A DNA stretch of 52,216 nt, taken from Pseudomonadota bacterium. GTDB taxonomy: Bacteria > Myxococcota > JACRCW01 > JAFGSX01. The DNA is taken from assembly GCA_043821645.1 (NCBI GenBank), contig JBDRCO010000136.1:1-52216 (forward strand), given 5' to 3'. Positions 19,973-48,318 of the stretch are shown in pieces (the stretch's first letter is position 1; every line of letters begins with the position of its first letter). The position numbers and the translations under genes were made by a program. The notes below the pieces were generated by a model that worked only from the letters and a program-made list of their open reading frames with translations, was not told the origin of the DNA and did no database searches.

Positions 19973-21400
19973 ATGCAGCCGTCGACGAACGAGAGTCCCT
20001 CGGCGCGCGCCATGGCGCGCTACCTCGAGCAATCGCCTGGCCTGCGCCGCCCCCTGCGTGCAGTGCCGGTGCCTGGTCTCCCCACGCTCCCCGATCTCAA
20101 GAAGCTGGCCCGCGACCGGCGGGCGGCCGGACAGCCCGTGGTGGACCAGTCAGCCGGCGATATCGACGACGTGGGGCAAGCCCTGGATCCTGGCTTCGTC
20201 GCCTGGATCGAGCAGGCCCGGGCCGATCTGGTGGCGGCGGGTCACAGCGTGTTCCGGGTGACCCACGGCGATGCCTATGGCTTCCCTGCCAACTATCAGC
20301 AGCAGTATCCCGTGGTCGTCGAGCAACTGGCGCGCAGCTGGGGGATCCAGTCCACCCCCTACAAGGCGGTGCAGACGGTGTCCGGCCGCACCGCCATAGA
20401 CCAGGTGCTGCGCGGTATGCTCGAGCGCGCGCGTGCAGGCCGCGGCGCGGCGAATCCCGCCATCATCGTCGACACCCTGGCCTGGTCCGGCTACCAGCCT
20501 CTGGCCGAGGACCTGGGTCTCGCCATCGTGCACATGCCGGCCGTGCCCGCGCATGGTCTGTCGTCGTCGGCCGAGGGTCTGGCGGAGGCCATCGTCTTCT
20601 GCCGGGAACAGCAACTGCAGCCCGTGGCGGCCATTCCCATCGTGCCCTCCAACCCGACCGGGGTGGGCATCTCCGCCGAGAAGCTCAAGGCCTTCGTCGA
20701 GACCGCCGCCGCCGCCGACCTGCCCGTGCTGGTGGATGCGTTCTACTCGCCACTGGCCCCCGAGGGGCACGCCCAGGCCGTGCCCCTGGCCTGGCTGGAG
20801 CAGAACCTGGCTCCCGAGGCCCTGGCTTTTCTCGGCGTGCTCGTTGGCGAGACCAAGGTGACCAGCTCGCAGAACAAGACCTCGACGGTGATCTGGATGG
20901 CGCCCCCGGGACACGACGATGTGGCCCGCCGGATCATCGGAGTGATGTTGCGCCGGCTCACCTCCACCAATACTTATCCGCGCCCTCAGGAGGCTCTGGT
21001 CGCCTATGCGCTGCATAGTTTCGCGGGCGGCATCCACGCGGCCATGGGGCCACGCTATCGGGCCCTGGATGCAGCACGGCAAGCGATGCGCGAGACCTGC
21101 GATTCGCTGGGCTTGCCCCTGAGCATCGGAGGCTCGTTCTATGGCACCGTGGCGCTGGTCGACGCCGAGGGGCAGGGCCTGATCCGCGACATCCACGGCA
21201 CACCCCTGACCGACCCTCGCCAGATCTGCGAGCTGCTGATCCGGGAACATGGCCTGGTCGGCGCGCCTGGAGGGATGTTCTCGTCAGCGCCCGAGGCTGC
21301 TGCCATGGCGCGGCTGACCGCTGCGGTCACGCTCGACGACGTCAAGCGCGTGCGCCATATCTTTGAGCAGCTGCTGCACAAGGCCGGCGTCCGGGGCTGA
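19973..21400 (+). CDS. Atypical PLP-dependent aminotransferase class I/II-like enzyme
   Basis: PSNPTG, VDAFY, GETK (probable PLP Lys), GSFY, PGGMF and ARLT. GGAG SD. Confidence 0.75.
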   Translation: MQPSTNESPSARAMARYLEQSPGLRRPLRAVPVPGLPTLPDLKKLARDRRAAGQPVVDQSAGDIDDVGQALDPGFVAWIEQARADLVAAGHSVFRVTHGDAYGFPANYQQQYPVVVEQLARSWGIQSTPYKAVQTVSGRTAIDQVLRGMLERARAGRGAANPAIIVDTLAWSGYQPLAEDLGLAIVHMPAVPAHGLSSSAEGLAEAIVFCREQQLQPVAAIPIVPSNPTGVGISAEKLKAFVETAAAADLPVLVDAFYSPLAPEGHAQAVPLAWLEQNLAPEALAFLGVLVGETKVTSSQNKTSTVIWMAPPGHDDVARRIIGVMLRRLTSTNTYPRPQEALVAYALHSFAGGIHAAMGPRYRALDAARQAMRETCDSLGLPLSIGGSFYGTVALVDAEGQGLIRDIHGTPLTDPRQICELLIREHGLVGAPGGMFSSAPEAAAMARLTAAVTLDDVKRVRHIFEQLLHKAGVRG

Positions 21401-21424
21401 GTCCTCGCCCCACAGGTGACGAAC

Positions 21425-23068
21425 ATGAACAGTTCAGCGTTGCCCCCGGGGGAGGGGGATCTGGAGTTGCAGCTCGCAGCCCTGGCGGACGAGGACCTGC
21501 GTGCCGTGGTCCAGCTCTCGGCAGCTCTTTGTGCCGAGCCTGGTGTCTCGGTGCCACCAGAGCGGACCAACCACGGCGCTCTGCAGCGAAGCGTGGAGAT
21601 CGTGCGCGCGTTCGCCAGGGACCACGGTCTGCACGTGATCGTGCGGGAGGCCGATGCCGATCACCCGTATCCCTACGTCGTGGTCAGCTTCGCCGAGCAG
21701 GTGCCCGGTGCGGATGCACCGTCCCAGGTGGTGGCCCTAGTCGGTCACCTCGACGTCGTCGGTGCGCAGGATGCCTCGCTGTGGTTGCCCCGGCTCGAGG
21801 GCGACGAGCTTCGAGCGCGTGGCGCCGCGGACATGAAGACCATGGTGGCGACGTATTTGGTGTGGATGGCGCGCTGGCAGAAGCGGCCCGGCCCGCGTCC
21901 ACCGGTGCTCCTGATGCTGAGCTGCTGCGAGGAAAACGGCAGCGCCCACCCGCACCACACCCGGTCGACGCTGCAGTGGCTGGGCGAGGTTCAGGGGATC
22001 ACGATTCGCCTCGCCGTCGTCGGCGAGCGCACCGGGGAACTCGAGTGGATGCGGCCGGCGCCCCGGGTCGGGCCGATCTGCAAGGAGAATCGGGCCTGGC
22101 GCTGGCTGCGCATCCGCGGCGCGGACTGCCGCGGGATCGAGGTCGTGCTCCAGCTTGCCCGGGCGATGGCCCAGCTGCGGCGCACCGTGCAGAGTCTCAA
22201 CGACGACGACATCCGCGCGAACAGGCGGGCGCAGCAGCCCGGCCTGGTGAGCGGCCTGGTCAACGCCTTCTGCCTTGTCGAGGGAGACGCCGAACCCGCA
22301 GGCGTCGATGAGGTCCTGGTCGAGGTGCGACGACCGCCTGGTGCCGCCTTGCACTCTGCAGCCGCCGTGGCGAGCGGGCCTGTGCTGATCGAGCGCTTCG
22401 CTGCTCTGGTGCTGGAGCTCAGGGTGCTCTCGCCGGCAGTCCCGCCGAGGCTCGTCGCGGTGCAGATCGGCGAGGACGGAAACTTCAACACCATCGACGG
22501 CTCCGGCCACATGCTGCTGCGCCTGGGCGACACCACGTGGCGTCAGGTGCAGGCGCACATCGAAGGCCGCGTGGGCGAGGACCTCCAGCTGCGTGTCGTC
22601 GACACGGTGCCTCGCCACAGCGTCGAGGGGCTGTGCCTGGGGCTGGATGTGCGGGAGCTGCTTGATCACCGACAGGCCGTGGACAGGGCGCTGCGCGATC
22701 TGCAGGAGGCCTTGCCCGAGGGGGCGGCGCTGGAGTCGGTGCTGGCCTGCCCGGCGTGGCGTTGCCCGCCGTCACACCCGGACCTGCAAGCCCTGGAGCG
22801 CGCTTACGCGCAGGTGATCGGTGAGACCTCGCCGGATCTGGTCAAGCTCCACGGCAACGATGGCGGGCAGCTGGCCGCATTGCAGCAGCAACAGGACGCC
22901 GTCGCCCGCAGGGATGGCACGGGCCACGCCGTGGTTTTTGGACAGGTCGGTCGAGGACCTCATGGTCCCGACGAGAGACACCTGGTGAGCAGCATCCGCC
23001 CCTATCTGGATATCCTGGATGCTTGGGCCGAGATGTTGCTGGCGCAGGGTCCAGGCCCTGGGTCCTGA
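21425..23068 (+). CDS. M20 family metallo-hydrolase (ArgE/DapE-like), long form
   Basis: GHLDVV, RGAADMK, CEE, VVGE, ND and HGPDE metal-binding motifs. Confidence 0.85.
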   Translation: MNSSALPPGEGDLELQLAALADEDLRAVVQLSAALCAEPGVSVPPERTNHGALQRSVEIVRAFARDHGLHVIVREADADHPYPYVVVSFAEQVPGADAPSQVVALVGHLDVVGAQDASLWLPRLEGDELRARGAADMKTMVATYLVWMARWQKRPGPRPPVLLMLSCCEENGSAHPHHTRSTLQWLGEVQGITIRLAVVGERTGELEWMRPAPRVGPICKENRAWRWLRIRGADCRGIEVVLQLARAMAQLRRTVQSLNDDDIRANRRAQQPGLVSGLVNAFCLVEGDAEPAGVDEVLVEVRRPPGAALHSAAAVASGPVLIERFAALVLELRVLSPAVPPRLVAVQIGEDGNFNTIDGSGHMLLRLGDTTWRQVQAHIEGRVGEDLQLRVVDTVPRHSVEGLCLGLDVRELLDHRQAVDRALRDLQEALPEGAALESVLACPAWRCPPSHPDLQALERAYAQVIGETSPDLVKLHGNDGGQLAALQQQQDAVARRDGTGHAVVFGQVGRGPHGPDERHLVSSIRPYLDILDAWAEMLLAQGPGPGS

Positions 23069-24226
23069 TCAGCGACGACCTCGACCCTGCAAGAATCTCC
23101 CTATCCGTGTCACGGCGTCCTCGAACACGCGCGGCTCGTCGGCGAAGGTCAAGCGCAGCCAGCTCCGGGTGACATGGCCGAAGGCGGCTCCGGGCGCTGT
23201 TATCACATCCTCCTGATCGAGCAGATCCAGGGCCAGTTGCAGGGAATCCTCGGTGTAGCTGGATAGATCGATCATGACGTAGAAGGCGCCATCGGGCTGA
23301 AGCACCGGACAGCCCAGGCCATGCAACGCCTTCAGGGCGGCAGCGCGGCGCTCGGTGTAGATGGGGTGGTGGTGGGTGAGCCACTGCGGGTTCTCGAACA
23401 CGAACTGCGCCATGTGTTGAGACAAGGTCGGCGCGCAGGTCGCGGCCATGTGATGGGCGCGCAGCACGCCGGTCATGTGGATGGGGTCGCCCACGACGTA
23501 GCCCAGGCGAAAGCCGGTCATTGCGCAGCTCTTGGACAGACCACTCACCAGGAAGACCCGACGCGTGTGGCGTGCGATCGAGGGGACCGCGTGCGGCAGG
23601 TAGCACAGGTCGGCGTAGATCTCGTCGCTGAGCACCGCGATGTCACGCCGGTCCACCAGAGCAGCCAGGCTCCTCAGTTCGTCGTCGTCGTCGACACTCC
23701 CCGTGGGGTTGCCCGGAGAGTTGAGCACGAGAAGGCGGGTGTGTGCGGTCACGGCCTGCTCGACGTCGCGGGCGATCAGTCTGAAACCCCGCGCCGGGTC
23801 GCGGGGCACGGCCACGGCGCGAGCCCCCAGCAAGGTCGCCACCGCCGCATAGGAGGGAAAGCCCGGATCGGGGACCACCACCTCATCGCCAGGGTCGAGG
23901 GTCGCCATCATGACGGCGAGGATGGCTTCCTGGGCGCCGCAGGTGACGACCACGCTTGCAGCGTCGCGTCGGCCCTCCAGGTCGTGGTGGCGCGCGATGG
24001 CCTCGCGCAGCCCGGTGAGACCTGCGTTGGCAGTGTAGCCCATGGAGCCGAGGCGCAGCCGCCGCTGCCCCTCGTCGAGGATGGCATCGGGCACAGGCAG
24101 CGAGGGCTGGCCGAGGCCCAGGTTCAGCGAACTCGGACGGCGCCGGTCGTACACGGCGCGGATGAGCGAAGGCTGCATGGCGGCAGTGCGGGCCGATTGC
24201 AGCGACGAGGGAACGGGCTGGCTCAC
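23069..24226 (-). CDS. PLP aminotransferase class I/II, probable DapC by context
   Basis: [20 protein letters not shown] and [16 protein letters not shown]. Overlaps the dapD stop. Confidence 0.85.
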
Positions 24227-25074
24227 GGAGTGGTCCCCATTGCGCCCTGTCGCAAGGCCTGTTCAAGCGCCGTGCGGGCGTCTGTGCGCGCGTCTCTGTA
24301 CTTGATGATCAAGGGTGCGGCGATGCTCAGTCCGAGCTCCAGCGCGAAGGCGCCGCGCAGCGGCCTGGTCCCGGGCACGACCACTGCCCGGGATGGGATC
24401 TCGAGAGGCTGCCCGGGCCGGGCTCGCAGCTCGCGTTGTTGGACCAGGTCGTACACGACGGTCGAGCCATTGAGGATGGTGCCCGACCCGAGAACCGCTC
24501 CCTGCCTCACGATGACGCCCTCGTACACGCCGCAGTTGCCGCCGACCATCACGTCGTCCTCGACCACCACCGGAACCGCGCCCGTGGGCTCGAGCACGCC
24601 GCCGAGCTGCGCGGCCGCGGACAGGTGCACGCGCTGACCGACCTGGGCGCAGCTGCCCACCAGGGCATGCGAGTCGATCATGGTATCGCGATCGACGTAG
24701 GCACCGATGTTCACGAAGGCCGGTGGCATGATCACGACTCCCGCGCCGATGTGGGCTCCACGCCGCACGCTGCTGCCACCCGGCACCACCCGCACGCCGT
24801 CCTCGAGGACGAACTGGCGGGCCGCCATGGTGTCCTTGTCGAAGAAGCTCGCATCAGCCTCGTGGCCGCAGCCCGTGAGCAGCCCGACCCGGAAACCGAG
24901 CAGGATGCCCTGCTTGACCCAGGAGCACGCCTGCCACTGGCCGTCCACACACTCGGCTGCGCGGACCTCGCCCCGCTCCAGCGCGTCGCGCAGCTCGAAG
25001 AAGAGGTCGCGCAAGGCCGCGGTCGCCAGGGTCGCGTCGTCGACCGCGCGGGTGATTCGCTCAGCCAGGGTCAT
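24223..25074 (-). CDS. dapD: Tetrahydrodipicolinate N-succinyltransferase
   Basis: [40 protein letters not shown] and GGVLEP. Confidence 0.93.
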
Positions 25075-26089
25075 GGGGTACCTTTCCATCCAGCAGGTCC
25101 ACGCAGAGTCCGCGATAGAGCTGGCGGGCCTGGTGCAGGTCGGCCACGGCCACCTGCTCGTCGTCGGTATGCGCCACGTGGATCGAACCTGGTCCCACCA
25201 TCAACGGCGAGCCCAGGGGCCGCAGATGTGCCACGTCGGAGGCGAAACCGACCACGCACTCTGGCCGGCCCTGGGGCACGACGAGGTGTTGCGGATCCGA
25301 GCGCGTGCGCAGGTCCATCTCCACATCGGGTCCAAGGAGAGATCGCACCCGCGCCTCGACCTCGTCGACGCGAGTCGCGATGCGCATCATGATCTCGGCG
25401 CGGGCCAGCGGCGCGAGGACGTTGGGGGCGTCGCCGCCATGCAGCGTGCCGACATTGAGCAGCGTATCGCCGATGTTCGCGTCCCGGGGCCAGTGCTCGG
25501 CACGGAGTCGATCCAGGGTGTCGAGGAGGCTGTGCAGGGCACTGAGGCCGAGTTCGGGGTAACCGGAGTGGCAGGCTCGCCCCGTGCAGGTCAACGAGAA
25601 GGCCAGGGCGCCTCGCTGGGCGCGAACAAAGCGCAGATCCGTCGGCTCGCCGTTGATGAGAAACTCCACCGGATCGAGGACGCGCGCTGCCGCCCGGGCA
25701 CCATCGCTGTTGGTTTCTTCTCCGACCACCAGCAGCACGGCGACATCGTCACGGCCGCTCGCGTGCAGGTCCAGCAGCGCCCCCAGCATGGCCGCGGCGA
25801 TGCCCTTGGCGTCGCAGGCGCCGCGCCCGCGGAGGCGTTCGCCGTCGAGACGCGGGGCGGGGCCACCAGGGACCGTGTCGAGGTGTGTGGTGAGCAGCAC
25901 GCGCGGTGGCCGTGCGCCACAAAGCAGCAGATCGCGGCGCTCTCCGTCGACGGGGATCGCCCGCACGCCGACCCCCCGCTGGAGAGCCCACCTCTCGATG
26001 AAGGACGCCGCAGCGTCCTCGGTCCCCGTAGGCGAGGGGATGCGCATCAGGTCCAGGGCCAGCGCCACTATGTCGACGTCCTCGTGCAT
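25061..26089 (-). CDS. M20 deacylase, probable succinyl-diaminopimelate desuccinylase (DapE-like)
   Basis: [30 protein letters not shown] and AHTDDE. First gene of the dapD operon. Confidence 0.82.
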
Positions 26090-26219
26090 GTTGCTCCTGG
26101 GCGTCGGCAGTCTATGCCGCCAGATGCACGTCGCCAAGCACCCCGGGCCTTTCCTTCAGGTTGCGAATCTGTAAAATACTTGCTCGGTTGGCGCTGGTGC
26201 CTGGGGAGTACGAGGAATT

Positions 26220-28313
26220 TTGGGACCCTTTCAGCCTCACTGGTTTGGCGACTATGAATTGCTGCGCCTCCTTGGTGTCGGGGGCATGGCCGAGGTTTTT
26301 CTCGCCCGCACCACCGGTGCGCAAGGATTCGAGAAGGTCGTCGTGGTCAAGCGCATGCTGTCCAAGCTCGCGCGCGACCCCCGCTTCGTCAAGATGTTCA
26401 TCGACGAGGCCAAGCTGGCGGTCCAGCTCTCGCACGCCAACATCGTGCAGATCCTGACCCTTGCCGAGCACGCAGGCACGCCCTTCATCGTCATGGAGTA
26501 CGTCCACGGACGCGATCTGTTCTCGGCGCTGCGAACGGCGGCCCAGGGCAAGGCTGGCATCCCCGTGGACTTCGGGCTGCACTGCATCGTCGAGATGCTC
26601 AAGGGCCTGAGCTATGCTCACACTGCGTCTGGCTCGGATGGCCGGCCGCTTCACCTGGTCCACCGCGACGTGACGCCATCGAACATCTTCATCTCCTTCG
26701 ACGGCGAGGTGAAGCTGGGGGACTTTGGCGTGGCCCACGCCACCGGTGAGGTCGACAGGCGAGAGGTGCGCGGGAAGTTTGGGTACCTGGCCCCCGAAGC
26801 GCTGCACGGCCAGCAGCTCGACGCCCGTGCCGACCTCTTCAGTGCCGGCGTGGTGTTGTGGGAGACCCTGGCCGGACGGCGATTGTTTTCGGGCAAGAAC
26901 GACACGGACGTGCTGCGCCAGGTACGCGATCGCGTACCCGAGCCACCCTCCCTGTTCAATCCCAAGGTCCCGCCCGACCTGGATGCCATCTCTGCCAAGG
27001 CCCTGGCCAAGGATCCCGATCAGCGCTACAGCTCGGCGGCCGAGTTCGAAGAGTCCCTGAGCGACTATCTGTTTGCCAGGCGTCTGCGCTGGACCCGCCG
27101 CCGTATCTCCGACGTGCTGAAGGCGCTGTTTCCCGACGACAGCAAGCCCCTGGTGCTGCCCCCACCCATGTCCCGAGATGCCAGAGTCGCCGATGCCAGC
27201 GACGATTTCGAGGACGACACCGATCGCCTCGTCATCGCTGTCACTGATACCGAGCTCACACCATCCAAGCCTCCAGGCAGCATGGTCGAATCGCGGGTGC
27301 AATGGCCCGAGTCCCTGGATTCCGCCATCGTCGAGGTCCCCGACGTCAACCAGATCGTGCTGTCCCAGGCCATGCAGCGTGCCCAGGCCGAACAGGTGCT
27401 GGTGCACTGGGCCGACGGAAACACCGTGGGCATGCGCATCCCGGAGATCGTCAGGACGCTCACCTACGAGCCCCACACGGTGGCCGGGCTCGGTGTCATT
27501 GGCGAGTGGAAGATGGAAGTCCCCGAGCTCGCAGGGCACCTGCTGTGGGACAGCCTGGCGGGGATCCAGGAGCCGGCATCGGCGCCGGAGGCCAGTGGCA
27601 GCCTCGCCCGGGTGAGCCTGGTTCGCCTGCTCTACGAGCTGACCCTGCGACGCATGAGCGGGCTGGTGGCCATCACCTCGGACGATGGCAGGCAGCGTCG
27701 TCATCTCTACCTCGAGGGTGGATACCCGGTCTACGTGGCCAGCGATGATCCGCGCGATGGTGCTCCCGCCCGTCTCATCGAGCACAACATGCTCAGCATC
27801 AGCACTCTGTATCGGGCGCTGGTCCAGGTGCTCGGTGATCGAATGTCTCTGGATCAGGCCCTGGTGTCCGTGGCTGGCACCGAGGGGCAGGCTCACGTCG
27901 AACGCATGTTCTCGGCCCTGGTCCGGAGCAGGTTGTATGCGGCCTTTTCCTGGTACGCGGGGAGCTTCCAGATCTATCCCGGTATCAAGCCAGAGACGCG
28001 GCTCAGTTTCCGCACACCACCCTTGCTTGGCATCTTGACCCGGGCGGTACATCGAGGAATGCCTCTCGACGAACTACAAACGCGGCTGCACACCCTCGGG
28101 CAACGCGCGGTGATGCTGAATCCGAAGCGCAAGCAGCACATCACGGCCCTGCACCTGCGCCCAGATGAGGTGGCCGTGGTCCAGGCCATCGATGGCACGC
28201 GGACCTTGCCGGCCATCCTCGAGCTGGTGGGCGCCAACACATCCGAGGCGCACCATGCGGTGCTGGTTCTTCTTTACGTGCTGGCCGAGACCCAGATCGC
28301 TTCTTTGATGTGA
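26220..28313 (+). CDS. Hanks-type Ser/Thr protein kinase with C-terminal DUF4388-like domain (paralog 1)
   Basis: LGVGGMAEV, VVKR, HRDVTPSN, DFG and GKFGYLAPE. C-terminal GSLARVSLVRLL...LYLEGG...W..G.F. Start codon is uncertain. Confidence 0.9.
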   Translation: MGPFQPHWFGDYELLRLLGVGGMAEVFLARTTGAQGFEKVVVVKRMLSKLARDPRFVKMFIDEAKLAVQLSHANIVQILTLAEHAGTPFIVMEYVHGRDLFSALRTAAQGKAGIPVDFGLHCIVEMLKGLSYAHTASGSDGRPLHLVHRDVTPSNIFISFDGEVKLGDFGVAHATGEVDRREVRGKFGYLAPEALHGQQLDARADLFSAGVVLWETLAGRRLFSGKNDTDVLRQVRDRVPEPPSLFNPKVPPDLDAISAKALAKDPDQRYSSAAEFEESLSDYLFARRLRWTRRRISDVLKALFPDDSKPLVLPPPMSRDARVADASDDFEDDTDRLVIAVTDTELTPSKPPGSMVESRVQWPESLDSAIVEVPDVNQIVLSQAMQRAQAEQVLVHWADGNTVGMRIPEIVRTLTYEPHTVAGLGVIGEWKMEVPELAGHLLWDSLAGIQEPASAPEASGSLARVSLVRLLYELTLRRMSGLVAITSDDGRQRRHLYLEGGYPVYVASDDPRDGAPARLIEHNMLSISTLYRALVQVLGDRMSLDQALVSVAGTEGQAHVERMFSALVRSRLYAAFSWYAGSFQIYPGIKPETRLSFRTPPLLGILTRAVHRGMPLDELQTRLHTLGQRAVMLNPKRKQHITALHLRPDEVAVVQAIDGTRTLPAILELVGANTSEAHHAVLVLLYVLAETQIASLM

Positions 28314-28453: not shown

Positions 28454-30598
28454 TTGGTGGGGTCTCTCTTCGACGACACGAACGCGGTGGGGTCGTGGGT
28501 GAACGAGGCGTTCGAACCTCACTGGTACGGTGACTACGAGCTGCTGCGGCCGCTGGGCGTCGGGGGCATGGCCGAGGTGTTCCTGGCGCGCACGGTTGGC
28601 GCCCAGGGCTTCGAGAAGGTGGTCGTCCTCAAGCGCATGCTGGCCAGGCTCGTCGACCAGCCTCGCTTCGTGCAGATGTTCGTGTCCGAGGCCAAGCTCG
28701 CGGTCAAGCTCGCTCACGCCAACATCGTTCAGATACTGGCCCTCGAGGAGATGGGGGGGCGGCCCTTCATCGTCATGGAGTACGTTCACGGGCGGGACCT
28801 GCATGTCCTGCTGCGCACGGCCCAGCAGCGGGGCATCGAGGTGCCCTCCGACTTCGTGCTGCACTGTCTGATCGAGATGCTGCGCGGCCTGGCCTTCGCA
28901 CACGAGGCCGTCGGCTCCGACGGCAAACCGCTGCGTCTGATCCATCGCGATGTCACACCCAGCAACATCTTCATCTCCTTCGACGGTGAGGTGAAGCTGG
29001 GAGACTTCGGAGTGGCGCACTCCCTCGACGGCACTCAAGGCCGCGAGCTGCGTGGCAAGTATGGCTACATCGCTCCCGAGATCCTTGAGCACCTGCAGAT
29101 CGATCACCGCGCCGACCTCTTCTCGGCGGGTGTCGTGCTCTGGGAATCTCTGGCCGGCCGGCGCCTCTTCGTCGGGCAGACCGACGGGCAAGTGCTGTTG
29201 CAGATTCGTGAGCGCCTGGTCGAGCCACCGTCTCAGCACAGTTCGCGCGTGCCGCCGGATCTGGATCGCATCGCCCTCAAGGCGCTGAGCAAGGATCGTG
29301 CGCTGCGCTTTCAGACCGCCCAGGAATTCGAGGATGCCCTGTCGGACTACCTCTTTGCCCGGCGCCTGCGCTGGACTCGTCGCCGCATCGCCGAGGTGAT
29401 GAAGGCCCTGTTCGCGGAGGATGCGGCACCGCTGGTCTTGCCACCGCAGACGCCTCGCGACGAGCTCAACTCCGTTGACGACTGGGAAGACTACTCGGAG
29501 ATGACCACCCGCAGCCTGGTGGTGAAGCTTGGAGCTTTGCAGCGGACGCCGACCAAGCCGCCCGGCAGCAAGGTGGAGTCTGCGGTGCACTGGTCGGGGT
29601 CGGTGGAATCCGACCCGGCGATCTCCGAGGCGACGCGGACCATCTCGGAGCCCGCTGCGCCGGCCCCCGAGCGCGCTTCCGCCCTGCTTCTGTACGCGGG
29701 GGCTGTTGCAGAGAGTGTCTCGCTGGCGACGCTGTGCCAGCGACTGACCAGGGACACTTCGATCTGCGATGGTGTGGGTGTTCGGGATGGACCCCATCTG
29801 TCGATGGCGCACTTCGGGCAACTCGTCTACTGGGACACCCTGGCCGGTTTTCCTCTGCTCGACGAGTCACCCGCGATCATCCTGGATATGGAGCAAGCCA
29901 GTCTCGTGCGCGTGATCTACGAGGCCACGGTACGCAGGACAAGCGGCTTGTTCATCATCGAGAGCGAGCACGGCGGAGCGCAGCGCTGGCTCTACCTCAA
30001 GGGTGGATACCCTCTTTACGTGGGTAGCAACAAGCCAAGCGAGGGCGCCCTGCCCATGATCCTGCGCCACCGGATGCTGAGCACAGCGCTGCTCGAAACG
30101 GCCGTCGAGACCAGCCTGCGCCGCATGTTACCCCTGGAGCGGGCGCTGCAGGAGGAAGCGGAGGGCGACAGCAGTGCGAGGGTCGAGCGGGTGTTCTCGG
30201 CGGTGCTGCGCACGCGCCTGTATCCGGCTTTCGCATGGCGACGCGGAAGGGTTCGAGTATACACGGGCGTCGCTCCCCAGCTTCGAGCGGCGGTGCGCAT
30301 CCCGCCCTTGCTGGGCATCCTGGCGCGTGCCGTGCGCCGGGCCCTGAGCGTCGAGGAGCTCAAGGCAGAGCTGGTTCCGCGCAGCGCTCGCGCGGTGGCG
30401 TTGCGCCAGGGCAAGGCCTCTCACGTCGAGGCACTTCGATTGCGGCCCGAGGAGCGCACCGTGATCGATGCCATTGACGGGCATCGCAACCTGGGCGAGG
30501 TCCTGCATGCCAGTGGTATGCTGGACACCGATGCGCAGCACGCAGCGCTCTCTCTGCTGTACGTGCTGGCCGAGACCGGTCTGGCAGACATGGTCTGA
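28454..30598 (+). CDS. Hanks-type Ser/Thr protein kinase with C-terminal DUF4388-like domain (paralog 2)
   Basis: Same motifs, colinear with paralog 1 over its full length. Start may be GTG at 28499. Confidence 0.9.
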   Translation: MVGSLFDDTNAVGSWVNEAFEPHWYGDYELLRPLGVGGMAEVFLARTVGAQGFEKVVVLKRMLARLVDQPRFVQMFVSEAKLAVKLAHANIVQILALEEMGGRPFIVMEYVHGRDLHVLLRTAQQRGIEVPSDFVLHCLIEMLRGLAFAHEAVGSDGKPLRLIHRDVTPSNIFISFDGEVKLGDFGVAHSLDGTQGRELRGKYGYIAPEILEHLQIDHRADLFSAGVVLWESLAGRRLFVGQTDGQVLLQIRERLVEPPSQHSSRVPPDLDRIALKALSKDRALRFQTAQEFEDALSDYLFARRLRWTRRRIAEVMKALFAEDAAPLVLPPQTPRDELNSVDDWEDYSEMTTRSLVVKLGALQRTPTKPPGSKVESAVHWSGSVESDPAISEATRTISEPAAPAPERASALLLYAGAVAESVSLATLCQRLTRDTSICDGVGVRDGPHLSMAHFGQLVYWDTLAGFPLLDESPAIILDMEQASLVRVIYEATVRRTSGLFIIESEHGGAQRWLYLKGGYPLYVGSNKPSEGALPMILRHRMLSTALLETAVETSLRRMLPLERALQEEAEGDSSARVERVFSAVLRTRLYPAFAWRRGRVRVYTGVAPQLRAAVRIPPLLGILARAVRRALSVEELKAELVPRSARAVALRQGKASHVEALRLRPEERTVIDAIDGHRNLGEVLHASGMLDTDAQHAALSLLYVLAETGLADMV

Positions 30599-33134: not shown

Positions 33135-33191
33135 TCCTGGGGTCTTTACTTCGACTGTCCACAGTCATCCTAGAAGATGCGGAGGGGTCTC

Positions 33192-35576
33192 ATGCGCTTG
33201 ATACTCGTCGGAGCGGATCATGAAGAGAACCTGGGTCTCGGCTACCTGGCCGCAGCGGCCACCGGGGCCGGCCATCAAGTGCAGGTGTTGCCACTGAACA
33301 GACGCCAGGATGCCGCTCTGCTGGCCCCGAGGATCGTCCAGGCCCAGCCCGAGGTCGTGGGTCTGTCGCTACAGTTCCAGCACCGTGCGGTGGACTTCCT
33401 GCTCCTTGCCGAGCTGCTGCGGCAACAGGGATACCGCGGTCACCTCACCTGTGGTGGCCAGGTGCCCTCTCTCGCCTGGCAGGAGCTGCTCTCCGATGCG
33501 CCAGCCATCGACAGCGTGGTCCTGTTCGAGGGTGAGCACACCCTGCTGGAGCTGCTCGCGGCATTGCAGGGAGGGACCTCGCTCGACGCCGTGCCGGGGG
33601 TCGCGCATCGCAGCGAAGACGGTCGGCCGGTGCGCAACACACCGCGCAGCCTGTGCACGGACCTGGATCAGCACGCGGCGCCCCTGCGCTATCGCCCGCA
33701 TACCCGGCACCTCGGCGTGCCCTTCATCCCTGTCTTGTGGAGCCGTGGGTGCTGGGGCACCTGCAGCTTCTGCTCGATCAGCAGCTTCTACAGCGGCGCA
33801 CGCGGGCGTGGGCATGGCAACGTCTTTCGCGAGCGCAGCGTCGACAACGTGGCAGATGAAATGGCCGCCCTGTATCGCGCTGCGGGTGGCGGCTTGTTTT
33901 GTTTCCACGACGACACCTTCCTGATGCCGCGGCCGGATCGTTCGCTCCAACGTGTTCAGGACCTGCGCTCCGCTCTGGATGCGCGCGGTGTCGGACGCAT
34001 CGGCATCATCGGCAAGTGCCGGCCCGACTGCCTGACACCGGAACTGGCCCGCAGCCTGCGGGAGCTGGGTGTGATCCGGCTCTACGTCGGCGTCGAGAAC
34101 GCCAGCGAGCCCGGACTGGTGCACCTGCGACGTCGGGCCACGCGTCAGCAGGTGCAGGCTGCCCTGGACGCCTGTGCCGGCGCGGGGATCTTTGCCTGCT
34201 ACAACCTGTTGCTGTTCGAGCCCGACACGGTCCTCGACGACGTGCGCACCAACCTCGACTTCATGCGTGACAACGCGCACCACCCTGTCAACTTCTGTCG
34301 TGCCGAGCCCTACATGGGGACGCGCCTGCATGCGGACCTGGTCGCGCGCGGGAGCTTTGTCGGCGATTACCGCTCGTGGAACTACCGCCTGCGCGACGAT
34401 CGCGCCGAGCTCCTGTTTCGTATCTGCGCGGCAGCGTTCAGGCAGCGCAACTTTGCCGACGCGGGGGTGGCCAATCGCTCGATGTCTCTGGGCTACTCGG
34501 CAAAGATCCTGCAGCACTTCGTGGGCGGACACGAGGCCGAGGAGCTCACCCGCGAGGCGACCCTCCTGACCGAGCACATCGTCCACAACACGGCCCTGCA
34601 CCTGGAGGAAGCCCTTGCCTTCGCGGCGACGGTGGATCTGGGCGATCGCGACAGCATCGAGCGCTACACGGCGACCCTGGGTTTGCGCGTCGCCACCAGC
34701 GATGCTGGCCTCGATGCCTCGATGCGGGACCTCAACATGCGCATGGAGCAGCTGGCGATCAGGCACCCGATCACCCCGGCCGCCCTGGATGGCATCAAAC
34801 CCCGGCGCAGCTCTGGCCGCGATCTCCTGCGCAAGCTGGCTGCAGGTGCAGCCCTGGGCGTGGGTGTGGTGGCGGGGGCGGCCTCGGTCTCCGACCCTCT
34901 CCCGCCCGACGGAGGCTACGTCGTGGATCCCGCACCCGTCGACGGTGGCCCGGGTGATGCCCAGGACGCGGGGCCTGGCATGGATCAGTGGGTGGTGGAC
35001 CCCGCTCCCTGGGATGCGGGTGGCGACGGCCCCATCGTCGTTGATCCACCGCCTGCGGACAGCGGCAGCCAGGACTACGGTCTCGTGGACCCCGCACCCT
35101 GGGACGCCGGCGGTGATGGCCCCATCGTCGTCGATCCACCTCCACCGGACAGCGGGGGCGTGGACGTGCCCCCGGTGGTGGATCCGGCGCCTGCCGACGC
35201 GGGCAGCCAGGATATCCCGCCCGTGGTCGACCCGGCGCCCTCCGACGGTGGTGGGATGATGGGGCTGGCGCCGCTGGACCATGACGTCGTCCTGGCGGTC
35301 CTGCGCCAGGTTTCAGGGACCTCCGCACCACGCAGCAGCGACCTGCCCATGACCGCGCCACCTCGCGTGGCCCTGCAGTTGCGGGGTCTGGGCGGGACCC
35401 GTCAGATCTCGCTCACCGGCGTGCCTGCCGCGGCCACACTGCGATTCGAGGTCAGCAGCGGTGTCATCGATGGCGAGGGCACGCAGGTCGAGTGGCGAGG
35501 TGCAGAACCTGGCGCGCAGATTCGCGTCGCCGTGCGCACCCCGGGTGGCGTGGCCGTGGTGCACGCAGTGATCTGA
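33192..35576 (+). CDS. Cobalamin-binding radical SAM enzyme with C-terminal hydrophobic segment, tandem acidic Pro-rich repeats and small beta-rich domain
   Basis: B12-binding-like N-terminus (NLGLGYLAA, VVGLS, GGQVPS, FEGEHTL). SRGCWGTCSFC CxxxCxxC, FHDDTF and VGVEN. GGAGGG SD before ATG 33192. Confidence 0.92.
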   Translation: MRLILVGADHEENLGLGYLAAAATGAGHQVQVLPLNRRQDAALLAPRIVQAQPEVVGLSLQFQHRAVDFLLLAELLRQQGYRGHLTCGGQVPSLAWQELLSDAPAIDSVVLFEGEHTLLELLAALQGGTSLDAVPGVAHRSEDGRPVRNTPRSLCTDLDQHAAPLRYRPHTRHLGVPFIPVLWSRGCWGTCSFCSISSFYSGARGRGHGNVFRERSVDNVADEMAALYRAAGGGLFCFHDDTFLMPRPDRSLQRVQDLRSALDARGVGRIGIIGKCRPDCLTPELARSLRELGVIRLYVGVENASEPGLVHLRRRATRQQVQAALDACAGAGIFACYNLLLFEPDTVLDDVRTNLDFMRDNAHHPVNFCRAEPYMGTRLHADLVARGSFVGDYRSWNYRLRDDRAELLFRICAAAFRQRNFADAGVANRSMSLGYSAKILQHFVGGHEAEELTREATLLTEHIVHNTALHLEEALAFAATVDLGDRDSIERYTATLGLRVATSDAGLDASMRDLNMRMEQLAIRHPITPAALDGIKPRRSSGRDLLRKLAAGAALGVGVVAGAASVSDPLPPDGGYVVDPAPVDGGPGDAQDAGPGMDQWVVDPAPWDAGGDGPIVVDPPPADSGSQDYGLVDPAPWDAGGDGPIVVDPPPPDSGGVDVPPVVDPAPADAGSQDIPPVVDPAPSDGGGMMGLAPLDHDVVLAVLRQVSGTSAPRSSDLPMTAPPRVALQLRGLGGTRQISLTGVPAAATLRFEVSSGVIDGEGTQVEWRGAEPGAQIRVAVRTPGGVAVVHAVI
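34884..35255 (+). repeat. Eight in-frame peptide repeats, consensus (V/L)V-D-P-x-P-x-D-(A/G/S)-G
   Basis: VSDPLPPDGG, VVDPAPVDGG, VVDPAPWDAG, VVDPPPADSG, LVDPAPWDAG, VVDPPPPDSG, VVDPAPADAG and VVDPAPSDGG. Confidence 0.93.
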
Positions 35577-43664: not shown

Positions 43665-46600
43665 CTAGACCTCGAACAGCAGGTGCTTGGAGCGCAGGCG
43701 ATCCAGGACCTGGCGATAGTAGCGAGGAGACAGGGTCACTCGGTCATGACCGGTGCGCTTGGCCTCGACGAAGCCGTATTCGCGCAGGATGCGCACCGCA
43801 AATCCGGCGAAGTCCATCGACACCGCGAGCGTGCTCTGGAGTTCCGGGGCAGCCAGGTTCTCGTGCTGGCAGATGGCGGCCAGGGCAAACCATAATTCGT
43901 CCCCCAGCAGGTCGAAGGCGCCGGCGTCGGCGGTGCGGAACAGTCCGACCTCCAGGGTGCTGTCATCGGTGGGGTGGAGCGCGCTGAGCCACAGGTGGGT
44001 GGCAATGCGCGGGTTGCCACGACTCTGATCCCACAGCAGACGGAAGAAGCCCTCGGCACCCTCGATGAGCTGGAACTGGTCGCTGGGTCCGGTTTCGTCG
44101 TCGAGCAACATCTCGCTGAAGCGGATGGTGAAGCCCGACCGCCGGTTGCGGGTGTTGATCAGTTCCTGCAATTCATTGGCGCTCCACCGCGGTAGCTCGA
44201 TGATGCGCCTGAAGTAGTGCTCGCGCTTGCGGCTCTGGTTGATGAACTGCCATGCGAAGCGATTGAACACGAGGACCCAGAACACCCGCTCGCTGGTCTG
44301 GTTGACGAGCTGCACGAGGGCGTCAAAGGCACGGTAGCCGTCGACGATGCGCAAGAAAAGATTGTGGGCGTCGTCGACGATGACGACGCGCTCGGGACCC
44401 GACTGCAAGAAATGCGCGATGTCCTCGATGCTGTGCGCGTCATCGGCGCCCAGCGCCGGCGCCAGGTTGTTGGCCAGGGACGCCGGGTCCAGCACCTTTG
44501 TGTGCAGAGTGTGAAACAGCACTTCGGTGTCGACGAGGCTGCGCCGCAGCATGCCGCACAGGGTGCTCTTGCCTATGCCCTTCTCGCCGACCAGGACCAC
44601 GGAGCCCCCGGCGTTGGTGCCGCGCCAGTGGGCGATCTGCTCGAGGATGGGCGCCAGCACCTCGTCTCTCCGCAATACGGCCGCATCCTCCTCGCCCAGG
44701 ATGGGGTACAGCGGAAACTCGCTGCGGTACTTCTCGGGAAGCTGTGCCTCGACCTCGCTGCCGGCCTTCTTGGCCATACGTTTAAGCTCTCGGGCGCGCA
44801 GGAAAGTCGAGAGACCGCCGCGCTCGGACAGGCGCAGCGCCACGCGGCTCGCGGCACCCACGACCAGCCAGACCAGGGCCACGGGGCTGAGGATCGCTCC
44901 GCGACGATCCCGGCTCATCCAGGAGATTGCGCCCTGCAAGCGGTGCGTGTCCTCGAGGGCCTGTTGCCAGCTGCGGGCCAGCAGTTCGCGCCAGCCCAGG
45001 CAGGCCCACACCAGCCACACCCCCAAACCCGCGATGATCACCATGTCGATGAGCGTGCGCAGCTGTCCGGAACCCAGCCAGGCGTCCACGATGTCATTGG
45101 CCGCAGCGGTCACCACCAGCATCAGGATCAGCCGGTCGTAGGTCAGCCGGAGCAAGCTCAGGGTGCCCTCGCGAACGTCGATGAGCGCGGGTCGGCCGCG
45201 CGAGACCCGGCGGGTCAGCCCGATGAGTGCCTGGCGTCCGAGCCAGAACAGCACGGCCCAGTGCCACAGGATGCTCAGGATCTGGACCTCGACATGGCGG
45301 GTTCCCAGGATGGTGAGCACCAGCTCGCCTGACACCACGTACAGCAGTGTCGGTGCCAGGGCTTGCAGCAGGCCCGCCCAGCGCACCACTGTGCCCATGC
45401 GGCCGCGCAGTGCGCGCAGGCGAGATACCTGCTTGACCAGCCAGCTGACACTGCCCGGGACGAAGCGCCGCCCCCACATGGTGCCGCCGACGACGAGGAT
45501 CAGCAGCGCGAGGCGACCCAGCCAGCCCCAGCTCGCTGCAGGAGAGGCGAAGCTCAGCACATCCCACAGATCCCCCAGGCGGCCGCGCCCCCAGCTTGCC
45601 AGCTGCGATGCCAGCTCCAGCACCTCGTCCTGCAGCTCGGTGAGCAGGGCGACCGATAACGCGTAGGCCTCCTTGCGCGCCTTATCTGAGGCGAGCGGCT
45701 CCAGCGTTGCATTGACCTGCCGCTCGAAGGCCAGGCGCCAGCGCCCGACCGCAACATTGCGACCTTCACTCAGGGTCATGACCTCGACCTGGCGCTCACC
45801 CACGCTGGCCAGGGCCTGTTCCGCTTCTGTAAAGCTCGGGACACTGGTGGGATCGAGAAGCACCTGGTCCAGGCGGGTGGTCAGGGCGCGCAGGTCCACG
45901 CCGGACCCTCCCTCTCCCTGGGCCGACAGCCCCCGCCTCTGCCTCCGCATCTCACGCATGTGCAGCAGGAATGCGTCGTCGAGCTCGGGACTGCCCCCGA
46001 CGAGCGCCAGGGTGCGCAGGATCAGGGTCTGCAGTGCCCGTCCCTCGGTCTCCAGATCCTGTGCCGCCTGGGCCAGCGCGCGCTCCAGCACGGAACTCGC
46101 CGCGATGGCGGCCTCGAGTTGCTCGCGCACGACGGTGCTGGCCTCGAGAAAACGTTCGCGGTCGACCATGAAACCGACCAGGGCACCACCGCTGGCTCTC
46201 GCGTCCAGGGTGGCGGCGCGCGCGGCCAGGCGCCGAAGTGCCCGGGTCAGTTCCGCGACCCGTTCCCGCTCCGTGCGCAGGGCGGTCCGCGGTTCACCCA
46301 GGGCCACGAAGCCGCGCTGGGCGGGTGCGCCAACCACGTCGAGTTTCTCGCCGAGGGCCACCAGGTAGCGATGTCTGAGCTGCGTGGTCTGCAGACGGGA
46401 CTTGCTCTCGATCACCCGCCGCTCGAGCTCCACGACGCGCAGGGCCTTGCTCGCGCGTGCCTGCGCCTGCTGCTCGAGGTGGTCCGCCTTTGCCTTCTCG
46501 TGGGCTGCGATGGCACTGGCGTACTCGGCTCGGGATCGCTCGTAGGCAGCCTGGGTCTCAGCGACCTGCTGCTGCCTGGCCTTGAAGGTTTCGATCGCCT

Positions 46601-47273
46601 TCTGGTGCTCGATCACGGCCTGGTCGTAGGCACTCCAGGCCTCGCGGCGCGCCGCGGTGGTGCGTCGCGAGCGCTTGAAGGGCGGCTTCGTGGGGGCAGG
46701 TGGTGCGGCACCGAGCTCGACGGGTGGCGGCGGGGCCGGCGCCACGGGAGCTTGCACCAGCGCCGGCGGCGGCGGGAGTTGCACCGACTCGGCGCGTGCG
46801 CTTGCGAGTTGCCGCTCCAGGTCCTGCTGCGCGAGTTCGCTCTCCCGAAGCAAGGTTGCCAGCTCGCCGATCCGGGAGCGCACGGCCGCCAGATCGCTCA
46901 GATCCACCGCGAACAGGCTGCGCGGGTCCACGTCGTGGTCGAGGGACCCATCGAGCAGCGAGCGGAGGCGAGCGATGAGGAGGTCTTGCGGTGACGCCGG
47001 GCTTGCTGGCGCGACGACGGGCTCTGCAGTGGGCTGGGTCGCAGGAACTGGGTCGCCGCGACCAGCCGGGTGGCGATCCTCCACCGCTGCGTCCCCGGAC
47101 TCCACGGCTGGTGCTGGCGACGGGGAGGCAGCTTCGGGCGCCCAGGCATCTCGTTGCTCTGGCGCCGCATCGCGACGGGAATCCGGTGATCCGGCAGTCG
47201 AAGCGTCGTGCGCTCCGGCGATCGCCAGCAGGGCGACGATGGTCAGCAGCGGGGCACCCGGAGCAGCGCGCAT
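43665..47273 (-). CDS. Large membrane protein: signal peptide, coiled coil, multi-TM region, P-loop (AAA-like) ATPase
   Basis: Walker A GEKGIGKS (about 44565-44588), Walker B VVIVDDAH and SRGNPR. Stop codon abuts the mscS SD. Confidence 0.85.
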   Translation of the reverse strand: MRAAPGAPLLTIVALLAIAGAHDASTAGSPDSRRDAAPEQRDAWAPEAASPSPAPAVESGDAAVEDRHPAGRGDPVPATQPTAEPVVAPASPASPQDLLIARLRSLLDGSLDHDVDPRSLFAVDLSDLAAVRSRIGELATLLRESELAQQDLERQLASARAESVQLPPPPALVQAPVAPAPPPPVELGAAPPAPTKPPFKRSRRTTAARREAWSAYDQAVIEHQKAIETFKARQQQVAETQAAYERSRAEYASAIAAHEKAKADHLEQQAQARASKALRVVELERRVIESKSRLQTTQLRHRYLVALGEKLDVVGAPAQRGFVALGEPRTALRTERERVAELTRALRRLAARAATLDARASGGALVGFMVDRERFLEASTVVREQLEAAIAASSVLERALAQAAQDLETEGRALQTLILRTLALVGGSPELDDAFLLHMREMRRQRRGLSAQGEGGSGVDLRALTTRLDQVLLDPTSVPSFTEAEQALASVGERQVEVMTLSEGRNVAVGRWRLAFERQVNATLEPLASDKARKEAYALSVALLTELQDEVLELASQLASWGRGRLGDLWDVLSFASPAASWGWLGRLALLILVVGGTMWGRRFVPGSVSWLVKQVSRLRALRGRMGTVVRWAGLLQALAPTLLYVVSGELVLTILGTRHVEVQILSILWHWAVLFWLGRQALIGLTRRVSRGRPALIDVREGTLSLLRLTYDRLILMLVVTAAANDIVDAWLGSGQLRTLIDMVIIAGLGVWLVWACLGWRELLARSWQQALEDTHRLQGAISWMSRDRRGAILSPVALVWLVVGAASRVALRLSERGGLSTFLRARELKRMAKKAGSEVEAQLPEKYRSEFPLYPILGEEDAAVLRRDEVLAPILEQIAHWRGTNAGGSVVLVGEKGIGKSTLCGMLRRSLVDTEVLFHTLHTKVLDPASLANNLAPALGADDAHSIEDIAHFLQSGPERVVIVDDAHNLFLRIVDGYRAFDALVQLVNQTSERVFWVLVFNRFAWQFINQSRKREHYFRRIIELPRWSANELQELINTRNRRSGFTIRFSEMLLDDETGPSDQFQLIEGAEGFFRLLWDQSRGNPRIATHLWLSALHPTDDSTLEVGLFRTADAGAFDLLGDELWFALAAICQHENLAAPELQSTLAVSMDFAGFAVRILREYGFVEAKRTGHDRVTLSPRYYRQVLDRLRSKHLLFEV

Positions 47274-47406: not shown

Positions 47407-48318
47407 TCACGCTGTGGCGGTCTGGTTCCGGCTGAGCGCAACGCGGCGGTAGATGATGATGCCCAGGGAGGTCAGGGCCACCAGCATGGATGTGAACTGC
47501 CCCACCGACAGCACGCCGTCGATGACGTAGCCGCGCTCGGGATCGCCGCGGAACAGCTCGAGGGTCGAGCGCAGGATGGGATAGAGAATGAAGAAGGTCA
47601 GGGCCACCTGGCCGTGGAACCACTTGCGCGAGCGCACGAAGACCAGGATCGCAAACACCAGCAACTCGCCCAAGGATTCGTAGAGCTGGACTGGGTGCAG
47701 GGGCAGCGTCGAGCCCAGCTCCGTCATCAGACGTACCGTCTCGGCGTCGGCGGTGCGGATCAGGCTGGTGTAGGCCAGGGCCTGGGGCGGGAAGCTGGCA
47801 GCCCAGGGCATGTCCGCGATTACCTTGCCCGCGTCGAGGTGAAAGGCGGGCTCACCCCAGCAACAGCCTGCGGCGAAGCAGCCCAGGCGTCCGAAGAAGT
47901 GGCCAAGGGGTAGCGACACGATGGCCAGGTCCGCGAATTTTCCCAGGTGCAGCTTGTGTCGGTAAGCGTAGATCAGGAAGGCGATGACGCCGCCGAGGGC
48001 ACCGCCATAAAAAACCAGGCCGCCCTGCCACACCGCGAGGATCGCCGGGATGCGAAAGGGCAGCCACTCCACAGTCACCCAGGGATTGGTCACGAAATAC
48101 TGGTGCCAGTTGACCGCGATGAAATACACGCGCGCGCCGACCAGGCCACCCACCAGCGCCCAGAACGCAAAATCCAGGGCCTCGTCCTCGTACTCACCCT
48201 GGCGCCGCGCTTCGCGCGTGGCGACGAAGATACCCATGACGAAGCCCAGAGCGATGAGCACGCCATAAGTGTGCAGGGGCCAGTCGACGATCGGGATGCG
48301 AAACAGGACGGGATGCAT
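47407..48318 (-). CDS. lgt: Prolipoprotein diacylglyceryl transferase
   Basis: MHPVLF, YG, GARVYF, WQGGLVFYGG, GRLGCFAAGCCWG, HPVQLYE and ELFRGD. Confidence 0.95.
   Translation of the reverse strand: MHPVLFRIPIVDWPLHTYGVLIALGFVMGIFVATREARRQGEYEDEALDFAFWALVGGLVGARVYFIAVNWHQYFVTNPWVTVEWLPFRIPAILAVWQGGLVFYGGALGGVIAFLIYAYRHKLHLGKFADLAIVSLPLGHFFGRLGCFAAGCCWGEPAFHLDAGKVIADMPWAASFPPQALAYTSLIRTADAETVRLMTELGSTLPLHPVQLYESLGELLVFAILVFVRSRKWFHGQVALTFFILYPILRSTLELFRGDPERGYVIDGVLSVGQFTSMLVALTSLGIIIYRRVALSRNQTATA

Follow-up and report, generated by a model that had tools for sequence, protein, structure and literature searches.

We describe a gene on a 52,216-nt contig (JBDRCO010000136.1, assembly GCA_043821645.1, placed in Myxococcota by GTDB; the whole stretch is hereafter called the window) whose single product appears to combine, as one polypeptide, a cobalamin (B12)-dependent enzyme of the radical S-adenosylmethionine (SAM) superfamily with an exported envelope protein that would carry Pro-rich motifs at its mature start. 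In the reading that we favour, and to which we give a somewhat better than even chance, this would be a two-module Myxococcota system in which a cytoplasmic class-B radical SAM enzyme modifies the DPxP motif or motifs of its still unexported tail, which is then exported by Sec. Judged by sequence, fused, split and motif-swapped versions of the system occur across Myxococcota, and the features that seem to stay constant across the enzyme clade are the enzyme, a signal-peptide-like segment, a short Pro-rich motif and some beta-sandwich domain, joined in one protein or encoded by adjacent genes.

Results

An enzyme and its tail in one open frame

The gene is one stop-free open reading frame (ORF) at 33177-35576 (+), translated into 799 aa, and the public gene call (P0002, 794 aa) starts at 33192, which corresponds to Met6. 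The first-pass annotation, made from the letters of the DNA, had also placed the start at 33192; the frame itself opens at 33177, and the earlier start survives as Met6 and as that of the public call. Its description of an enzyme that runs without a stop into a basic/hydrophobic segment, eight repeat units and a beta-rich domain was borne out by the ORF, Pfam and AlphaFold2. The G+C content of third codon positions (GC3) in the coding frame remains at 0.75-0.87 along the whole gene, unbroken from the enzyme through the tail.

Sequence and model together identify residues 1-540 as a class-B (cobalamin) radical SAM enzyme, for which cobalamin binding and SAM cleavage are predicted. Pfam recognizes a B12-binding domain (PF02310, E 3.9e-17; 62.6 bits, cut-off 32.1) and a radical SAM core (PF04055, E 1.2e-14), the three Cys residues C192, C196 and C199 are invariant across 45 aligned homologues, and AlphaFold2, supplied with these 45 homologues, modelled the 540 residues at a predicted local distance difference test score (pLDDT) above 90. 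Foldseek matched the enzyme to OxsB (E 5.6e-21, 16% identity), TsrM (1.9e-18) and MgmA (8e-18), and also to CysS and TokK; with phmmer at E 1.7e-08, the sequence relation is at the superfamily level only. All scores against NCBIfam equivalog models fell below their cut-offs (ApyD, 93.8 vs 750; HpnR, 93.6 vs 650; BchE, 83.9 vs 481; HpnJ, 68 vs 578; TsrM, 13.9 vs 500), as did those of the split-clade enzymes described below, and identity as a hopanoid methylase was rejected on the HpnR score (93.6 bits). Pfam gave no match beyond residue 351, and none in the tail at E up to 1. The window genome holds a single copy of the fused gene; its other B12 radical SAM proteins share at most 29% identity with the enzyme over most of the length, apart from one match of 32% identity that covers a shorter part.

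Among 5.8 billion proteins searched, 120 homologues were listed; they are 45-60% identical and without exception 722-860 aa long. Every one carries DPxP units after about residue 560, at 1-14 per protein, and 119 match a hidden Markov model (HMM) of the end domain. From DNA of one genome per species, 124 stretches encoding relatives were obtained and 80 loci kept, all of them from Myxococcota metagenome-assembled genomes (MAGs), including Polyangiales, Sandaracinaceae, Nannocystaceae and Bradymonadia; the end-domain HMM gave matches at 76 of 82 loci, 74 of which have the match in the same open frame as the CxxxCxxC motif. Because all listed homologues carry the tail and these 74 loci are in one frame, the fusion is not an assembly accident. 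The first-pass annotation had let its reading depend on whether close homologues carry VxDPxP repeats in cis or in trans, and the close homologues all have them in cis. A single MAG can hold three or four fused paralogues on separate contigs (L037, L048, L071 and L083; L021, L035 and L088).

With the window tail as query, no stand-alone tail was found among proteins of 143-455 aa at E up to 0.001, and the short end-domain matches that appeared as separate genes in the library of representatives were mostly contig-truncated pieces of fused genes. One relative, P0123 (669 aa), joins the enzyme to the Ig (immunoglobulin)-like domain without the hydrophobic segment or the repeats, and it also lacks the family-invariant enzyme residues C242, C341, N343, N372, F373 and C374, three of which are Cys. 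We read this single case, from its sequence, as a coupled loss of segment, repeats and invariant enzyme residues.

The tail contains eight DPxP units; within residues 567-700 the string DPxPxD occurs eight times, whereas 20,000 shuffles gave it 0.18 times on average and never more than 3 times. Since the DNA of the units is only 69-83% identical and Tandem Repeats Finder detected no tandem array in the repeat DNA, the repeats appear to be old units whose peptide motif is held by selection at the protein level, and not the outcome of recent duplication or slippage. The logo of 645 family units reads G-M-V-V-D-P-(P/L/V/A)-P-P-D-A-G with a period of 14-15 residues; the D and both P, at 100%, are fixed by the search pattern itself, the D at +5 is present in 88% and the G at +7 in 70%. 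When the 7.07-Mb window genome was scanned in six frames for ORFs of at least 80 aa, this gene was the only ORF with at least two units.

For the end domain, AlphaFold2 predicts a seven-strand beta sandwich, with a pLDDT of 84 when the domain is modelled alone and 79-95 in the full-length model. Its best fold matches in the PDB are Ig- or fibronectin type III (FN3)-like and weak (E 4e-3, template modelling score about 0.45-0.55), and a sequence search of the PDB with the end-domain profile returned chance-level rows only. Curated models for the tail were found in neither Pfam nor NCBIfam. A TonB-like assignment had no support, given the absence of a TonB C-terminal domain, the lack of any Pfam match in the tail and a fold search that gave only Ig/FN3-like sandwiches.

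A signal-peptide-like element inside the protein

The junction between enzyme and tail looks, in its sequence, like a Sec signal peptide lying about 540 residues inside the protein, and in nearly all relatives it looks like one of the lipoprotein type. Across the 120 listed homologues, the 20 residues that precede the hydrophobic segment contain on average 5.2 K/R and 1.3 D/E, whereas the 30 residues that follow it contain 1.1 K/R and 6.1 D/E. By inspection, 118 of these homologues have after the segment a Cys with G, A or S in front of it (115 in a stricter automatic count), and 80 fit a lipobox core pattern modelled on PROSITE PS51257. The post-segment Cys is lacking in P0001 and P0003. The window protein and P0003, its nearest relative, are the two exceptions, in which the segment ends in AGAAS without a lipobox Cys (AGAASVSD in the window), and the window junction keeps the basic-before, acidic-after charges and an Ala-x-Ala-like end; its segment, with a mean Kyte-Doolittle value of 1.96 over the best 15 residues, compares with a family mean of 1.59. 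Tat export was set aside: twin Arg is present among the 20 residues preceding the segment in no more than 56 of the 120 homologues, and there is no fixed RRxFLK context.

The basic/hydrophobic segment had thus been seen correctly in the first-pass annotation, which missed that it is a signal-peptide-like element, of lipoprotein type in 118 of 120 relatives. The same annotation had left the processing of the tail unexplained; because the junction is signal-peptide-like, general Sec, Lgt, LspA or signal-peptidase machinery could account for both export and processing.

Split and motif-swapped relatives

A phylum-wide search of 401 genomes with the enzyme part alone matched 29 genomes at E up to 1e-40, from which 30 loci were kept: 11 fused, 14 split, 2 with no partner seen and 3 truncated or unclear. 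Two of the fused loci are of the VVDP type of the window, six have a lipobox-type junction and three have other tails, as in L114, which has a canonical lipobox and two acidic repeats. The junction of the six reads PRHAAAV...GC, and the five complete ones continue with 3-5 GVAEAAPPPY units and a different end domain, which Pfam calls PEGA in L117 alone (E 8e-08; 5 tails scanned). The loci L111, L113, L116, L117 and L118 have nearly identical (H/R)DxGVAEAAPPPY repeats (tails at L113:481-1344 and L117:640-1488).

In the 14 split loci the enzyme is tail-less, about 546-604 aa long, and ends in GDxVATPLQRA, and one or two same-strand ORFs of about 165-215 aa lie directly downstream, with a stop/start overlap of 4 nt in 5 of 7 split loci. 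These more distant, tail-less homologues have next door the split VVDPxPxP ORF for which the first-pass annotation had proposed to look. The partner begins with a long basic N-terminus, KKLMxExLPxP...RxRVxxH(L/M)R, followed by a hydrophobic segment and a lipobox Cys; 2-5 residues later comes a single (V/A)VDPLPPPxxC motif and then a beta-rich domain. Eight partner sequences agree without exception in the lipobox Cys, the D, three P and another two Cys, and tandem partner genes occur at L127, L131 and L133. Examples of the split form, all annotated as hypothetical, are found among L126-L134 (L128:9946-10443, L127:6661-7741 and L131:6552-7789). The partner family comprises 44 clusters, unnamed or called 'hypothetical protein', without a Pfam or NCBIfam model, and 37 of the 44 keep C..hhDPxPxP..C. 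A DNA pattern for V-D-P-h-P-P-P matched eight times in five genomes of 9-11.5 Mb; seven of these matches fall in partner genes adjoining the enzyme, and the remaining one is in a frame rich in Arg and Pro that has no radical SAM gene close to it.

A quick tree unites the fused and the split enzymes, without exception, in a single clade that excludes the other B12 radical SAM proteins of the same genomes (Shimodaira-Hasegawa-like approximate likelihood ratio test, 96-100), and the window enzyme groups with P0003 and P0123 (support 98). Homology between the end domains of the window protein and of the partners was not detectable: hhalign found only an 8-column VVDPLPP stretch shared by the Ig-like domain and the partner beta domain, with a probability of 4.8%.

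Gene features and neighbourhood

The features of the gene are collected in Table 1. On the opposite strand an open frame of 637 aa lies inside the gene at 33369-35282 (-), with a GC3 of 0.75 vs 0.81 in the real frame; it is a shadow of high-GC coding DNA and not a gene. Rfam gave no match over the whole window.

Table 1. Features of the fused gene in the window
Feature	Position (nt)	Strand	Basis
Whole gene, 799 aa and stop	33177..35576	+	ORF translation, coding-frame GC3, public gene call
Predicted cobalamin (B12)-binding domain, residues 17-126	33225..33554	+	Pfam PF02310; fold as in OxsB, TsrM and MgmA
Predicted radical SAM core, residues 188-351	33738..34229	+	Pfam PF04055, invariant cluster Cys
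CxxxCxxC cluster motif, C192/C196/C199	33750-33773	+	Alignment
Enzyme C-terminal helical domain, about residues 400-540	34374..34796	+	AlphaFold2 helices 408-529, pLDDT >90
Basic, n-region-like stretch KPRRSSGRDLLRK, residues 541-553	34797..34835	+	Residue composition
Hydrophobic, h-region-like segment LAAGAALGVGVVAGAASV, residues 554-571	34836..34889	+	Ala-rich end, without lipobox Cys
Eight hhDPxPxDxG units, residues 572-692	34890..35252	+	Motif scan; predicted disordered
C-terminal domain, residues 693-799	35253..35573	+	Short helix, then seven-strand Ig/FN3-like beta sandwich

Of the ten neighbouring genes in the window, none was found again at the 80 loci except generic Ser/Thr kinases (15 of 80); the neighbours compared include a DUF5924/DUF2914 protein, a 209-aa hypothetical protein, an HD-domain protein and a penicillin-binding protein. 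The biggest cluster of neighbour proteins spans 12 of 81 loci, and no conserved precursor, protease or exporter gene was found nearby in the 80 loci, in agreement with the earlier remark that none adjoins the window gene. Upstream of the gene, two Ser/Thr protein kinases stand in tandem at 26220-28313 (+) and 28454-30598 (+), each with a C-terminal DUF4388; we take the kinases near 15 of the 80 homologue loci to reflect the general abundance of such genes in Myxococcota.

Other parts of the window are listed here as observations in their own right. A gene for Lgt, the prolipoprotein diacylglyceryl transferase (PF01790, E 8e-58), lies 12 kb downstream at 47407-48375 (-); Lgt catalyses the first step of the lipoprotein pathway, and this gene is probably a housekeeping one that is nearby by coincidence. 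The region 19868-26137 contains two aminotransferase-like genes, two M20 peptidase genes and one tetrahydrodipicolinate N-succinyltransferase-like gene, a cluster that resembles the succinylase branch of the diaminopimelate/lysine pathway (dapC/dapD/dapE-like). A 1202-aa protein encoded at 43665-47273 (-) has AAA_22 and AAA_16 near its C-terminus, and its N-terminal 850 residues have no Pfam match.

Discussion

We propose that the enzyme acts on the DPxP motif or motifs of its still unexported tail, either in cis or on neighbouring molecules. The modification would take place before export, the one stage at which a protein bound for export is in the same compartment as a soluble enzyme of the cytoplasm. 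Methylation of unactivated carbons is what most class-B enzymes do, and the chemistry would most likely be C-methylation of such a carbon, a prediction that comes from the enzyme class alone; Val, Asp or Pro could be the target residue, and any choice between them would be a guess. The signal-peptide region would serve as handle or leader and as cleavage site, Sec would export the tail, and signal peptidase II, in most relatives, would separate or anchor the product, whereas cleavage by signal peptidase I, or no cleavage, is conceivable for the window protein. The product would be a modified Pro-rich tether bearing an Ig-like domain in the cell envelope. A more pointed version of this proposal, which we hold tentatively and rate slightly short of an even chance, is that the B12 enzyme is itself the cytoplasmic 'leader' of its own substrate and modifies the tethered repeats, probably by C-methylation, with Sec and signal peptidase taking the parts of exporter and leader protease.

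An enzyme-substrate relation is, in our view, the most economical explanation, because the motif directly follows the signal peptide, is private to the system, changes with the clade and is present in several copies per enzyme. The motif switches along with the enzyme clade, from VVDP-type to GVAEAAPPPY-type tails, and the several precursor copies per enzyme, whether tandem genes or 1-14 units in cis, resemble multi-core precursors. The first-pass annotation had taken the repeats for multi-copy cis substrates, which accords with tails that stand in cis or in next-gene partners, although AlphaFold2 docks none of them. Its idea of the tail as the small core of a ribosomally made peptide modified after translation (RiPP) gives way to that of an envelope protein with an Ig-like domain that is probably exported.

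Several points weigh against this proposal. The modification of the tail is a prediction from sequence and enzyme class, and the best curated-family scores fail to separate peptide from lipid methylases (ApyD, 94 bits; HpnR, 94). In the AlphaFold2 model, residues 556-699 are disordered (pLDDT <50) and no repeat sits in the active site, so that the docking which the first-pass annotation had hoped to see in a predicted structure did not appear. The window protein is without the lipobox Cys that is present in 118 of 120 relatives, and its processing is less clear than theirs: its tail may be cut by signal peptidase I, may stay anchored or may remain unexported. The hydrophobic segment is conserved within clades (LALGASLA; RHAAAV) beyond what is seen in ordinary signal peptides, which could point to a structural transmembrane role, and an internal signal-anchor is normally targeted co-translationally, which would leave little time for modification in cis. 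Two basal tail-less enzymes, L119 and L120, have no partner in the DNA seen, and the clade itself was drawn from a quick maximum-likelihood tree with long outgroup branches.

The main rival reading is that the tail is a partner of the enzyme and not its substrate. The segment would then anchor the enzyme at the inner membrane, where it would act on a lipid or small molecule, and the periplasmic repeats and Ig-like domain would position the enzyme, sense, or receive its product, with the lipoprotein of the split clade doing likewise. We regard this as unlikely, yet as deserving serious weight: the charges are distributed as the positive-inside rule would have it (5.2 K/R before the segment vs 1.1 after, with 6.1 D/E after), end domains of the Ig-like and PEGA kinds are what envelope proteins typically have, within clades the sequence of the transmembrane-like segment is conserved, the repeats are disordered and tether-like in the AlphaFold2 model, and HpnR and HpnJ are among the weak best matches. 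Nevertheless, in the split clade the enzyme lacks a membrane segment of its own, which means that anchoring is not always required; a plain tether would not preserve so sharp a motif (D100 P100 x P100 x D88 x G70 across 645 units), and one would not expect the motif of a tether to be unique to this gene within an entire genome. No lipid-pathway gene is found among the conserved neighbours, and the HpnR, HpnJ and BchE scores are 7- to 8-fold under their cut-offs.

It is quite improbable, we believe, that the tail of the window sub-clade stays in the cytoplasm, with an Ala/Gly-rich flexible or dimerising linker and an Ig-like domain that recruits or presents some other substrate. Such an arrangement would fit the missing lipobox Cys of the window protein and P0003 and the clade-mate P0123, which joins enzyme and Ig-like domain without segment or repeats; however, the window segment is as hydrophobic as that of the family (1.96 vs 1.59) and retains the charges and the Ala-x-Ala-like end, and P0123, a single cluster, has lost invariant residues and may be decaying or re-purposed. 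That the fusion is really two proteins, through an artefact, a recent frameshift or an internal start for the tail, is scarcely credible and already contradicted. The sister-clade genes are indeed only one frame shift apart, with their 4-nt overlaps, but one open frame is kept in 74 of 76 loci from different species and the coding-frame GC3 is continuous. The 30 codons before the hydrophobic segment of the window gene contain no in-frame ATG, GTG or TTG, and a start with a Shine-Dalgarno-like motif is seen in 11 of 78 genes compared with 9 of 78 in a control stretch. An internal translation start is thus unsupported, and, with no upstream in-frame start and no enrichment of such motifs, the tail is made as part of the fusion.

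If enzyme and tail do form a substrate pair, the consequences would be of some generality. The use of a signal peptide as a RiPP leader, so far confined to oxidative enzymes that depend on multinuclear non-haem iron (MNIOs) in papers of 2025-2026, would reach cobalamin radical SAM enzymes and envelope proteins, and the system would be the first cobalamin-radical-SAM counterpart of RiPP-lipoprotein hybrids, a one-gene maturation unit for a modified envelope protein. As a natural enzyme-substrate fusion it would let general export machinery replace a dedicated protease and transporter, and for this reason genes for the latter would not be expected nearby. It would also imply an unknown chemical modification of Pro-rich envelope tethers in uncultured, probably anaerobic, myxobacteria. 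The hypothesis is testable, with a defined motif, a split two-gene version for reconstitution in trans and clades with other motifs as specificity controls. The first-pass annotation had not recognised the architecture as one already described, and our literature searches likewise found no description of a design in which enzyme, signal peptide and repeats are fused; as far as these searches reach, the design is not in print.

Each element of the system nevertheless has relatives among known ones. PoyB/PoyC, TsrM, Mmp10 and MgmA carry out class-B C-methylation of unactivated carbons in ribosomal peptides or proteins, and they act on separate peptides that carry a nitrile hydratase-like leader peptide (NHLP) or some other leader, or on folded proteins, of which methyl-coenzyme M reductase (MCR) is an example. 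To our knowledge, no enzyme of this group forms a fusion with its substrate or is linked to a signal peptide. The window enzyme shares with them the B12-binding domain and the radical SAM core; a precursor with an NHLP or Nif11 leader, as expected for a proteusin-type (PoyB/C) system, was found neither in the protein nor among its neighbours, none of which is conserved. The anaerobic sulfatase-maturating enzyme (anSME; AtsB) and the QhpD-QhpC pair offer another parallel, in which cytoplasmic radical SAM enzymes modify periplasm-bound proteins before export. Modification by a radical SAM enzyme before export is the point of likeness; anSME and QhpD are SPASM-type and not cobalamin enzymes, they act on C/SxPxR motifs or form Cys-Asp/Glu thioethers, and we know of no case in which such an enzyme and its substrate are fused.

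Borosins of the OphMA type carry enzyme and core in one polypeptide, several sites of which are modified iteratively. Their enzymes are SAM-dependent alpha-N-methyltransferases that act as a domain-swapped dimer, with no radical chemistry, B12, signal peptide or export module. One polypeptide for enzyme and putative core, here a single conserved ORF, is what the two systems have in common, and in this respect the borosin-like architecture of the first-pass annotation stands; the window protein has no alpha-N-methyltransferase domain, Pfam finding only PF02310 and PF04055, and the better analogy is a RiPP-lipoprotein hybrid, of the kind of DAG-RiPPs and bufferins, combined with a borosin-like fusion. 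The clavusporin enzymes also count among the class-B peptide or protein C-methyltransferases (PMC10849626).

The closest precedents for the export side are bufferins and DAG-RiPPs, in which precursors with Sec or lipoprotein signals are modified in the cytoplasm. Bufferins and oxazolins derive from precursors that bear Sec signal peptides and are modified by MNIOs, and a lipoprotein signal is found in about 16% of Buf2 precursors; the authors themselves ask how many sites are modified before export (PMC12452194). Bufferins resemble the present system in that a signal peptide replaces the classical leader and motifs are repeated in long precursors, and they differ in enzyme class, Cys-based copper-binding motifs, the DUF2063 partner and, as described there, the absence of a signal-peptide-joined fusion (PMC12452194). 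In DAG-RiPPs, ChrH-type MNIO enzymes modify precursors whose leader is a signal peptide for signal peptidase II; the precursors are then lipidated, cleaved and exported by the general lipoprotein pathway, and some substrates are whole proteins of more than 30 kDa (PMC13056109). The terms 'radical SAM', 'rSAM', 'cobalamin' and 'fused' are absent from the text of that paper. Both systems pair a cytoplasmic enzyme with a precursor that has a lipoprotein signal as leader, but DAG-RiPPs, as that text presents them, use an MNIO, separate genes and Cys-rich motifs, whereas here we find a B12 radical SAM enzyme, one polypeptide and DPxPxD (PMC13056109). Compared with the defining features of DAG-RiPPs, the lipobox Cys is lacking in the window protein and present in 118 of 120 fused homologues and in the split partners, the enzyme is encoded together with its putative precursor, fused or adjacent, and Pfam finds no MNIO domain. 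We rate the system as a combination of known kinds, namely class-B enzymes that modify peptides or proteins, RiPP precursors in which a signal peptide is the leader, and enzyme-substrate fusions.

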